A DNA stretch of 64,000 nt, taken from contig CP064970.1 of the NCBI GenBank assembly GCA_016699305.1, positions 389,647 through 453,646 of the forward strand. The letters are read 5' to 3'. Origin of the DNA: Alphaproteobacteria bacterium (GTDB lineage: Bacteria > Pseudomonadota > Alphaproteobacteria > GCA-016699305). The position numbers and the translations under genes are program-made. The notes beneath the pieces are model-generated. The model worked only from the letters and a program-made list of their open reading frames with translations, did no database searches and had not been told where the DNA came from. Within the stretch, counting starts at the first letter, position 1. Each line of letters begins with the position of its first letter. This document shows positions 28,362 through 29,519 of the stretch, one piece after another.

Positions 28362-29519
28362 TTACGCTGCATGATGCCGTGTAAATTCTTTCACGCCACG
28401 ATACAATATTGTATGGTGTGCGTTGAGCGGCAGGTTGTCGTTGCTGCCCGCGATGGCATAATTGCTCGCGGTGGCGTTCAGGTTGATGCTGGCGATGCCG
28501 GTCTCTGCCAGAGTCTTTAACTCCGCTGCTTGGCTGACGCCGTCCTGGTTCAGATCGCGCCAGACTTTCAAATTGGCGAACTGAGCATCCGCCGCGCTGA
28601 TCTTGCCGTCTTTGTTCGAGTCCAACGTCGCCAGCGCCAGAAACCCATCCGCCTGACCCGTCTTATCCCCAAACAATTCCCCATGATCGTCAATCACCCC
28701 ATTCCCATTCACATCCCGCGCCAGCAACCCATCATCCGACTTCACCCACGCGCTCGCCTCGCGGAAACCATCCTTGTCAATATCCCAATACACCCCATTC
28801 GGACCCGTCAACTCAACGCCGTCTCCGTCAAGATCCAACACCAGAGGCGAACCTTGCTCGGAGGCTTGGTTGAATTTGGCCAGCAACTCCGCCTGCCAAC
28901 CGGGAAGCGCGACACACTGATTACCAAAAATGTTCATTACCTTGTTATAAAAAGGAATAATATCTTGACGAGAAAGTAGCGTTCCTGGGGTATCAACACC
29001 TTTAACAAAACTAGATCCTAGGCCATCATGATAGAATGCATAATAATATTCAGGGCCAAGGCCCTGGCGCTCACATTTATCTTTAATTTTATTAAAGAAT
29101 GATACCATTGTCTGAATGCTTATATAAGCATCAAACTGACCAGCCTGCCCAACTGGCGTACTCACAGACGTGTTTTCTTTCCAAGTGGTGTTGATAAACT
29201 GGCCGAGACCCGCCGCTGTTGTCGTCCCAGCTGCAGCATCCGGATTAAAACCAGATTCTTCTCTTATAATCGACAATATAAAAGCAACACCACTATTGCT
29301 CATGCCCTTTTCTTGACCGGTCTGAATGACCATGTCGATAACTTTCATCTGAACATCTGGATCTGCATCGCCAACCTTGCGGCTACGTCCGGCTAATCTT
29401 CCAGCTGTACGATCAATTGGATCATTGTAGTGACTTTCTTTTATAACTTGGTCAGCTCTATAGGATCCACCTTTTTTGCTATTTACATACAGCTGATATA
29501 ATTTACTATTGTTTGACAT
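28362..29519 (-). CDS. lytic-transglycosylase (SLT-like) head fused to the RTX Ca-binding segment; orphan head module
   Basis: GGAGGT RBS; N-terminal ~195 aa low-GC with SLT-like motifs (SIIREESGFNP...AAGLGQF); residues ~196-355 near-identical to residues ~283-437 of the RTX protein; ends with diverged copy of the conserved tail (...KEFTRHHAA*). Confidence 0.75.
   Translation of the reverse strand: MSNNSKLYQLYVNSKKGGSYRADQVIKESHYNDPIDRTAGRLAGRSRKVGDADPDVQMKVIDMVIQTGQEKGMSNSGVAFILSIIREESGFNPDAAAGTTTAAGLGQFINTTWKENTSVSTPVGQAGQFDAYISIQTMVSFFNKIKDKCERQGLGPEYYYAFYHDGLGSSFVKGVDTPGTLLSRQDIIPFYNKVMNIFGNQCVALPGWQAELLAKFNQASEQGSPLVLDLDGDGVELTGPNGVYWDIDKDGFREASAWVKSDDGLLARDVNGNGVIDDHGELFGDKTGQADGFLALATLDSNKDGKISAADAQFANLKVWRDLNQDGVSQAAELKTLAETGIASINLNATASNYAIAGSNDNLPLNAHHTILYRGVKEFTRHHAA
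28445..28883. repeat. ~440-bp segment near-identical to 25477..25915 of the RTX gene
   Basis: Shadow ORFs 25715..25966 and 28530..28979 encode near-identical peptides; protein segments FNQASEQGSPLVLDLDGDGVELTGPNGVYWDID... shared. Confidence 0.8.

Follow-up and report, generated by a model that had tools for sequence, protein, structure and literature searches.

An orphan lytic-transglycosylase head with a truncated self-processing module: a probable stored cassette of a type-I-secreted polymorphic toxin

We analyzed a 64-kb window (all 64,000 nucleotides of the stretch, contig CP064970.1) from the 2.06-Mb contig of an uncultured alphaproteobacterium, a metagenome-assembled genome (MAG) whose window proteins are listed at NCBI under accessions QQR694xx. 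On the minus strand between 21.1 and 31.2 kb, flanked by atpD and a capD-like gene, lies an island that contains a gene for a 1874-amino-acid RTX protein (hereafter the main gene) and, in series upstream of it, small AT-rich genes. One of these small genes encodes a 385-amino-acid protein (QQR69456.1, labeled 'SLT domain-containing protein' at NCBI), in which a lytic-transglycosylase head is followed by a segment shared with the main gene, an observation of the initial annotation that our analysis confirmed. We propose that this orphan is probably a stored alternative head cassette of a polymorphic toxin exported by a type I secretion system (T1SS), silent where it lies and open to activation by recombination. 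The elements on which this proposal turns are listed below; SPM stands for self-processing module, and chassis for the conserved part of the protein that follows the head. Relatives are identified in brackets by our own labels, which begin with L or P.

28362..29519, minus strand: orphan head open reading frame (ORF), 385 amino acids, QQR69456.1, with SLT head, cut-down SPM and read-through tail
28878..29519, minus strand: variable head, amino acids 1–214, family-1 type lytic transglycosylase, 41.9% GC
28445..28877, minus strand: shared chassis segment, orphan amino acids 215–358, comprising the linker KFNQASEQGS and the first 134 SPM-like residues
25477..25909, minus strand: main-gene copy of the shared segment, recombination partner of 28445–28877
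21164..26788, minus strand: expressed full-length gene, 1874 amino acids
29565..30203, minus strand: candidate immunity protein for the SLT head, with a membrane or signal segment at its N terminus and the motif C...Y...NCxxCE

The first 214 residues of the orphan were identified as a lytic transglycosylase. Amino acids 72–151 matched Pfam SLT (PF01464) with 28.7 bits (cutoff 21.3, E=1.1e-6), and an NCBIfam search returned nothing beyond the Pfam results. Homologues of amino acids 1–214 had identities of 33–57%, and in an alignment of 33 head sequences E88, G90, F91, N92, P93, G106 and Q107 were invariant and S89 and G104 nearly so; the motif of the family (E-S, then a G-L-x-Q type) reads ESGFNPDAAAGTTTAAGLGQF in the orphan, with the codon of the catalytic E88 at 29256–29258. 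An AlphaFold2 model built on the 33-sequence alignment reached a pLDDT of 88.6 and a pTM of 0.85, and when it was compared with the PDB using Foldseek the top 15 matches were exclusively lytic transglycosylases (probability 1.0), among them Cj0843, Slt70, MltC, MltE and phiKZ gp144, although the matches themselves were modest (E ~1e-3, TM 0.45–0.52). By sequence and predicted structure the head is thus an SLT, or family-1, lytic transglycosylase with the lysozyme-like alpha-helical GH23 fold, as the initial annotation had anticipated from its motifs; that annotation had named the absence of such a fold or of a catalytic residue as grounds for abandoning the idea, and both the fold and the conserved glutamate were found. 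The enzyme would be expected to cleave peptidoglycan, and presumably to do so in the periplasm. The head is also AT-rich, as first described (41.9% GC, compared with 57.1% in the shared segment).

The boundary between head and chassis, at KFNQA, is sharp. From there the orphan and the main gene match without gaps at 424 of 433 nucleotides (97.9%), the nine differences changing three amino acids, and to either side of this segment no more than a few bases separate it from sequence at background identity. The near-identity reported at the outset was therefore correct in substance, but its residue numbers were off: the segment spans orphan residues 215–358 (not ~196–355) and main-protein residues 294–437 (not ~283–437). 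Nor is it as ordinary as the other repeats of the locus, the possibility on which the initial annotation had been prepared to yield, since the best internal pair of RTX modules is 91.7% identical and a further chassis fragment (fragment A, below) 92.1%.

One part of the initial description had to be replaced. The shared segment had been taken for an RTX calcium-binding block; instead, by sequence comparison it is a homologue of the self-processing module of the Neisseria meningitidis protein FrpC (PDB 6SJW, E=1.6e-37 over query residues 225–356), and precomputed annotation of relatives (including P0044) assigns the region to the Pfam family PF26745, 'SPM'. The calcium-binding loops DLDGDG, DVNGNGVIDDHGE, DSNKDGKISAAD and DLNQDGVSQAAE align with those of FrpC, as do two conserved tryptophans, in AWVKSDDG and KVWRD. 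In FrpC, calcium-induced folding of the module leads to cleavage of an Asp-Pro bond by way of an aspartyl anhydride, and the strands at the two ends of the module are paired (PMC7078468); replacing the aspartate with alanine blocks the reaction (PMC12538545). At the scissile position Ser-Pro is found in orphan and main gene alike (GS/PLVLDLDGDG, with the proline codons at 28847 and 25879). This substitution is not peculiar to the locus. Among 106 relatives listed (from P0047–P0165), the residue at position −1 was aspartate in 68, serine in 26, cysteine in 6, alanine in 3, glutamate in 2 and threonine in 1, and because serine occupies the position in 26 of them, Ser-Pro SPMs form a sizeable uncharacterised subclass; the SLT head family itself was found with both Ser-Pro and Asp-Pro modules.

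What the orphan retains of this module is incomplete. Its copy breaks off at ...YAIAG after 134 of the ~162 residues, so that the ~28 C-terminal residues present in the full domain of the main gene are missing; because it stops before the last two strands, the module cannot be complete. As had been noted from the start, we found in the orphan neither the RTX repeats nor the C-terminal tail of the main protein, and a signal peptide, a lipobox and a C-terminal T1SS signal were likewise not found in the 385-residue protein. Lacking a signal peptide, an RTX block and a C-terminal signal, the protein as encoded has no route to peptidoglycan. It does have an ATG of its own, preceded at 9 nucleotides by a GGAGG Shine-Dalgarno sequence.

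The same head occurs elsewhere at the N terminus of complete proteins. A relative of 1605 residues (L019) has the order SLT head, SPM with a GS/P scissile site, RTX repeats, and is 41% identical to the orphan over 369 amino acids (E=1e-75); two further full-length SLT-SPM-RTX proteins are 1893 and 1005 residues long (P0179 and P0237). In another lineage (L030) an 1181-residue SLT-SPM-RTX gene is followed directly by genes for an outer-membrane factor (OMF; OEP family), an ABC transporter with Peptidase_C39 (C39-like) and ABC_membrane domains, and a membrane-fusion protein (MFP), which together, judging from their sequences, are a T1SS. These fusions surfaced with full HMMER searches and look-ups of gene context; a word-indexed search with the SLT head alone did not find RTX fusions. 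Heads of other kinds sit on SPM chassis as well (GH108 lysozyme, M23, NlpC/P60, Ntox44, DUF6973 and a putative metallopeptidase), and differing heads are found on one type of chassis both within and between genomes.

Orphan heads with truncated chassis likewise recur upstream of such genes, in at least six other lineages (L015, L019, L023–25, L027, L030 and L054), each array having its own repeated junction tail. In one (L015) a headless fragment is followed by an orphan head with SPM and then by the main gene, with a repeated tail element and 524 nucleotides at 95.2% identity; in L019 the orphan is a GH108 lysozyme and the copies share 694 nucleotides at 94.4%. The array of L027 includes an NlpC/P60 head, and that of L030 an orphan head of the GH108 type. 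The layout of L054 matches that of the window: there the orphan is an SLT head, and downstream of it another kind of head is joined to SPM and RTX repeats. Comparison with relatives thus lends strong support to the reading of the orphan as an alternative head. Two further observations concern the L015 orphan: a frameshift at a string of Ts breaks its reading frame (9664–10936) in two, and a possible identity of its head (which carries the motif HGGSFPGSAGCIDF) with L,D-transpeptidases of the Tlde1 or YkuD-like type drew no match from Pfam.

The gene directly upstream of the orphan head (29565..30203) likely encodes its immunity protein. Its product has 212 residues from the ATG at 30203 or 225 from a GTG at 30242, and it resembles the products of genes upstream of SLT heads in other loci (L018, 25% over 139 amino acids, E=1e-5; L012; L019, E=6e-8). 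A word-indexed search with the 225-residue protein matched only the protein itself. We recovered its family with a hidden Markov model (HMM) built from four sequences and run on 99 fetched loci: in 63 of the 77 SLT loci with at least 500 nucleotides of upstream sequence, a member lay directly upstream on the same strand, and it is this conservation of order that makes an immunity function likely. The rule that an inhibitor gene precedes its head holds for a known inhibitor family too, because in L030 the gene 5′ of the GH108 lysozyme orphan belongs to the LprI family of lysozyme inhibitors (E=4e-17). The suggestion that neighboring small proteins are partners of the head therefore survives for the upstream protein and not for the downstream protein of 148 residues. 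Pairs of an SLT head and a member of the 225-residue family are also found on other delivery modules, many of them ~586-residue proteins of metagenomic origin with SLT, M23, PG_binding_1 and a C-terminal domain of ~100 residues.

The orphan and its candidate partner form one unit of an array, the remaining elements of which are as follows (J denotes a ~90-nucleotide element present in four copies).

30877..31196, minus strand: fragment A, a headless chassis remnant (main-protein residues ~421–525), 92% identity, at the island border beside the capD-like gene
30779..30876, minus strand: J3, inter-module element, after fragment A
30360..30704, minus strand: 114-residue paralogue of the 117-residue protein; its module has no head left
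30248..30345, minus strand: J2, inter-module element, directly 5′ of the candidate immunity gene
28362..28444, minus strand: J4, a diverged J copy, read as the 27-residue orphan tail SNDNLPLNAHHTILYRGVKEFTRHHAA, which ends at a stop codon
27892..28338, minus strand: 148-residue membrane-anchored protein, by position alone a candidate for immunity in the decayed module that comes next
27682..27870, minus strand: 62-residue ORF, remnant of a DUF6973-type head
27549..27636, minus strand: J1, inter-module element with TTTACA-18-TGaTAAATT and an 8-bp hairpin
27121..27474, minus strand: 117-residue protein, encoded immediately 5′ of the main head region

In the order of transcription, the array begins with fragment A (headless chassis, 92%) and J3; continues with the 114-residue gene and J2; then with the 212/225-residue exported protein, the SLT head with truncated SPM, and J4; then with the 148-residue membrane protein, the 62-residue DUF6973-type remnant with a fragment of an HCBP_related domain, and J1; and ends with the 117-residue gene, a 42-residue ORF and the full-length gene. 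It is, in other words, an array of units (small exported protein, head, truncated chassis, J) upstream of a full gene. The region 27637–27870 is a third, heavily deleted head module: the 62-residue ORF has the motif AYRHxLxSAExTR, which is that of the DUF6973 heads that precede SPMs in two relatives (P0060 and P0145), with one of which it is 57% identical over 21 amino acids (P0145, E=6e-6; Pfam DUF6973 gave E=0.13), and it is followed at ~27637–27690 by 20 codons of an HCBP_related domain (VADLVLQRQDSDLIV). The 117- and 114-residue proteins are 34% identical; in DNA their J, upstream region and first 19 codons agree at 92%, and beyond codon 19 the two genes are diverged and AT-rich. We found neither a family match nor a membrane segment in either protein, and they are candidates for immunity to a head that acts in the cytoplasm or for an accessory factor.

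Besides J4, the three copies of J are 87–95% identical; every copy lies 3′ of a truncated piece of RTX chassis or of a small gene and 5′ of a small gene, and the best conserved part, GTGAAAGAATTTACA, is present in all four. The left end of J is fixed (GGTTAACGAC...), and the chassis fragments joined to it end at differing points. J1 and J3 contain the promoter-like sequence TTTACA-18-TGaTAAATT, and we read J from its sequence as an inter-module, possibly promoter, region, which would make the 27-residue tail of the orphan an accidental read-through; the short conserved tail of the initial annotation is indeed the diverged fourth copy of J. We considered other identities for J and rejected them. 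Its encoded tails end ...NDN...RLAA before the stop, which we take to recall alphaproteobacterial SsrA tags (the tail ends in other genomes are ...VNDNFGELPVRAAS in L015 and ...RRAA in P0235 and L054, each at the stop), and no tmRNA-like structure was found: ARAGORN and Rfam matched neither a tmRNA-derived nor an integron-attC-like element in the window or in L015. Folding of J as single-stranded DNA gave short local hairpins only, and none in J4. A consensus terminator was not found in J, where J1 and J3 have the promoter-like site instead.

In base composition, the cassettes of the island have 34–44% GC and the J elements, SPM and main head are genome-like; conserved flanks of normal GC enclose the AT-rich cassette (34–42% GC). 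The remaining large genes of the window that we tested are housekeeping genes. The island is separated by ~10 kb from a dnaA gene (11548..13110, minus strand) and a tRNA-Met gene (region 11274–13110), which places the locus near a likely replication origin.

The main protein consists, in order, of a Gly-rich hydrophobic head, the SPM (residues 304–465, nucleotides 25394–25879), a post-SPM region, RTX/HCBP repeats (26 HemolysinCabind stretches and 6 HCBP_related domains) and a C-terminal tail. Its reading frame remains open for 51 codons 5′ of the first ATG without a start codon (26788–26960, minus strand), and a strong AAGGAGG-N9-ATG at 26919 lies in another frame, which the addition of one T to the adjacent TTTT run would fuse to it (MIIFPRDRAIRDF...). 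Translation therefore probably starts from the ATG at 26919, which would add 44 residues to the head, with the T run probably hiding either a homopolymer sequencing error or a real frameshift. The head (25910–26788, minus strand) had no family match and, immediately ahead of the SPM, bears a long hydrophobic stretch rich in Gly and Ala; similar stretches are found in the heads of Marinibacterium, Rhizobium laguerreae and Xanthomonas fragariae relatives (L001, P0140 and P0164). It may be a toxin of a membrane-inserting, glycine-zipper-like type.

Together, these features suggest how the locus might work. The expressed protein would combine a variable N-terminal toxin head, an SPM-like calcium-dependent module, the post-SPM region, the RTX/HCBP repeats and a C-terminal secretion signal, and the upstream units would be older or alternative versions, each consisting of an immunity gene, a head, a chassis cut at a variable point, and J. 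As encoded the orphan would be silent in effect, and the ~28 SPM residues that it lacks correspond to the strand of FrpC that is paired, at the cleavage site, with the N-terminal one. The 433-bp direct repeat (97.9%) would offer a ready route of activation: a single homologous crossover would remove 2,968 bp (the 148-residue gene, the DUF6973 remnant, J1, the 117- and 42-residue genes and the current head) and produce an in-frame SLT-SPM-RTX protein of 1,795 amino acids, colinear with the natural full-length ones. The upstream candidate immunity gene (29565..30203) would be retained, and the 148-residue gene, by position part of the next module, would be lost. Once secreted, the protein would fold on extracellular calcium and might release its head, which would enter the periplasm of a neighboring cell and cut the glycan strands of peptidoglycan, with the exported upstream protein protecting the producer and its kin. 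Because the array lies entirely on one strand and is tightly packed, the immunity genes of orphan modules are probably expressed now.

Several findings weigh against this proposal. We did not observe the swapped state in this lineage, for which we have a sole close relative, a 2.9-kb contig (L016, Logan SRR14932530). Compared with window positions 30887–32265 and 23753–25532, this contig has, immediately next to the capD-like gene, an RTX gene without a head that begins at the MESGIASINL border of fragment A and runs unbroken into the repeats, at 93.8% identity to the main gene and mostly main-like; it is either a natural deletion between repeats or a collapse in assembly. A sister genome was not found when genome contigs were scanned for the chassis, which gave only distant relatives at 41–49% identity, and an exact look-up of contigs encoding the orphan matched no record. 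T1SS genes (ABC, MFP or OMF) were not found within the window. Because the scissile bond is Ser-Pro rather than Asp-Pro, the chemistry of FrpC would not be expected to free the head. The main head is genome-like in GC whereas the orphan cassettes are AT-rich, so a simple history in which the newest head occupies the expressed position does not fit. An AlphaFold2 model of the 225-residue protein, made without an alignment, had a pLDDT of only 40. Finally, the head of a 180-kDa secreted protein would have to pass the outer membrane of a target cell.

The orphan could instead be a pure relic, a displaced former head that is decaying and is never re-used, with at most the linked immunity gene of any consequence. 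Its neighbors are indeed decayed (the 62-residue DUF6973 remnant, the headless fragment A, and the 114-residue gene that stands directly before J2), orphans elsewhere carry frameshifts or internal deletions (L015 and L054), and its own SPM is truncated. The SLT head, however, is an intact reading frame of 214 codons that keeps every invariant residue of its family, and the cassette retains its own Shine-Dalgarno sequence and candidate immunity gene; moreover, the repeat that it shares with the main gene stands at 97.9%, above the 92% of fragment A, and is therefore either recent or kept alike by conversion. We consider a pure relic unlikely.

We would give far less weight to the idea that the 385-residue protein works as it is, whether as a housekeeping or secretion-associated transglycosylase or through some other means of export. 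Its own ATG and Shine-Dalgarno sequence would suit such a gene, and many members of the family are free-standing proteins of 190–370 residues, but those relatives lie in effector settings (T6SS-like, that is, resembling type VI secretion, in L018; phage-like in L017; or X-Tfe-like) rather than housekeeping ones, and the orphan has neither a signal peptide nor a lipobox that would give it access to peptidoglycan, ends in a truncated, non-autonomous SPM fragment, and owes its tail merely to read-through into J. Hardly credible at all is an artefact in which mis-assembly of the MAG created the 433-bp duplication and the array: the two copies differ at nine positions, their flanks are unique, coherent and in frame, and like architectures occur in independent NCBI, JGI and ENA assemblies, even though the genome was assembled from a metagenome, long-read errors are suggested by the probable homopolymer frameshift where the main gene begins, and the L016 contig may itself be a collapsed repeat. 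We therefore continue to regard the orphan as probably a stored and switchable head.

SPM-like modules occur far beyond this architecture. They are extremely common, with 16,108 representatives of clusters matched at E<1e-10, and many stand as two to four tandem copies near the C-terminal end of giants of 3,000–7,500 residues (P0167–P0315), in contrast to the single N-proximal SPM of our locus. In the cyanobacterium Elainella saxicola (L007, 7913–12658) an Rhs/YD-repeat core with DPxGL is followed by a Ser-Pro SPM-like module and a post-SPM region, so the module is also used inside Rhs-type proteins.

Polymorphic toxins with orphan cassettes are a known class; what would be new is the proposed T1SS-borne, reversed version, within which the orphan SLT head is nothing out of the ordinary. 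As a conjecture to which we lend slightly less than even credence, the SPM-RTX proteins of the FrpC/FrpA family may largely be a widespread class of T1SS polymorphic antibacterial toxins that mirror CDI and Rhs systems, with swappable N-terminal heads, immunity genes 5′ of them, and upstream libraries of silent heads exchanged through SPM homology, and Ser-Pro and Cys-Pro SPMs (~30% of the listed relatives) may release the head by a chemistry other than the Asp anhydride. If so, type I secretion would join the routes that carry polymorphic toxin and immunity systems, in reversed architecture. The findings lend concrete genomic backing to the view of FrpC-like proteins as interbacterial weapons rather than host adhesins, a hypothesis raised only in passing before. 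The locus and its relatives supply two pairings open to direct test, that of the SLT head and the protein encoded upstream of it and that of GH108 and LprI, and a large new family of candidate lytic-transglycosylase inhibitors, and the serine that replaces the catalytic aspartate in a quarter of the listed SPM relatives bears on the mechanism of NeissLock protein ligation. In the literature that we searched (subscription journals lay outside its scope), polymorphic N-terminal heads, upstream orphan arrays and Ser-Pro SPMs were not described, and the SPM appears solely as a device for clip-and-link reactions or host adhesion and as a tool of protein engineering.

Among known systems, the locus resembles FrpC and FrpA with FrpD in Neisseria meningitidis, and ApxIVA, which have the same sequence of N-terminal domain, SPM, RTX repeats and T1SS signal. 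It is chiefly in the N-terminal part that FrpA departs from FrpC. A small exported partner also binds the N-terminal domain in FrpC (PMC5233953, PMC6759196): FrpD, encoded with FrpC, has been proposed as an immunity protein, and one paper has suggested the two as a possible T1SS effector and immunity pair (PMC6759196). The function of FrpC is usually discussed as host adhesion; unlike FrpC, our locus has a Ser-Pro scissile site, recognisable antibacterial enzyme heads and upstream arrays of orphan heads.

The pairing of the head with an upstream partner recalls the effectors (X-Tfe) and immunity proteins (X-Tfi) of Xanthomonas citri. XAC0466, a protein of 584 residues with its XVIPCD at 488–584 (PMC6759196), lyses peptidoglycan (PMC6536674), its immunity gene XAC0467 is adjacent (PMC6759196, PMC6536674), and X-Tfi immunity genes are upstream genes for periplasmic lipoproteins (PMC6536674). 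The ~586-residue homologues of the SLT head match XAC0466 by size and XVIPCD position only, and may be type IV secretion system (T4SS) effectors of the XAC0466 type; in our locus delivery would be by SPM-RTX and T1SS instead of XVIPCD and T4SS. The bacteriocins pesticin and colicin M, which target peptidoglycan, and the type VI glycoside-hydrolase effectors of the Tge/Tgi pairs are similar as secreted or injected cell-wall-degrading toxins that act in the target periplasm and have a periplasmic immunity protein, and differ in fold, delivery and gene order; a receptor-binding or translocation domain, moreover, was not identified here.

The organization of the locus as a whole can be compared with the orphan cdiA-CT/cdiI modules of contact-dependent inhibition (CDI) and with rhs-CT/rhsI, which share a conserved chassis, a sharply bounded toxin domain and an adjacent immunity gene, and whose silent orphans keep homology to the chassis of the main gene and can be activated by homologous recombination; for Rhs orphans, recombinants have been selected experimentally. 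Unlike those systems, which use type V (T5SS) or type VI secretion, ours would use a T1SS, and its activation would delete the current head. In CDI and Rhs systems the toxin is C-terminal and the orphans lie downstream; here the toxin is N-terminal, and therefore the orphans lie upstream and immunity genes precede their toxins, a mirror image of the CDI and Rhs arrangement.

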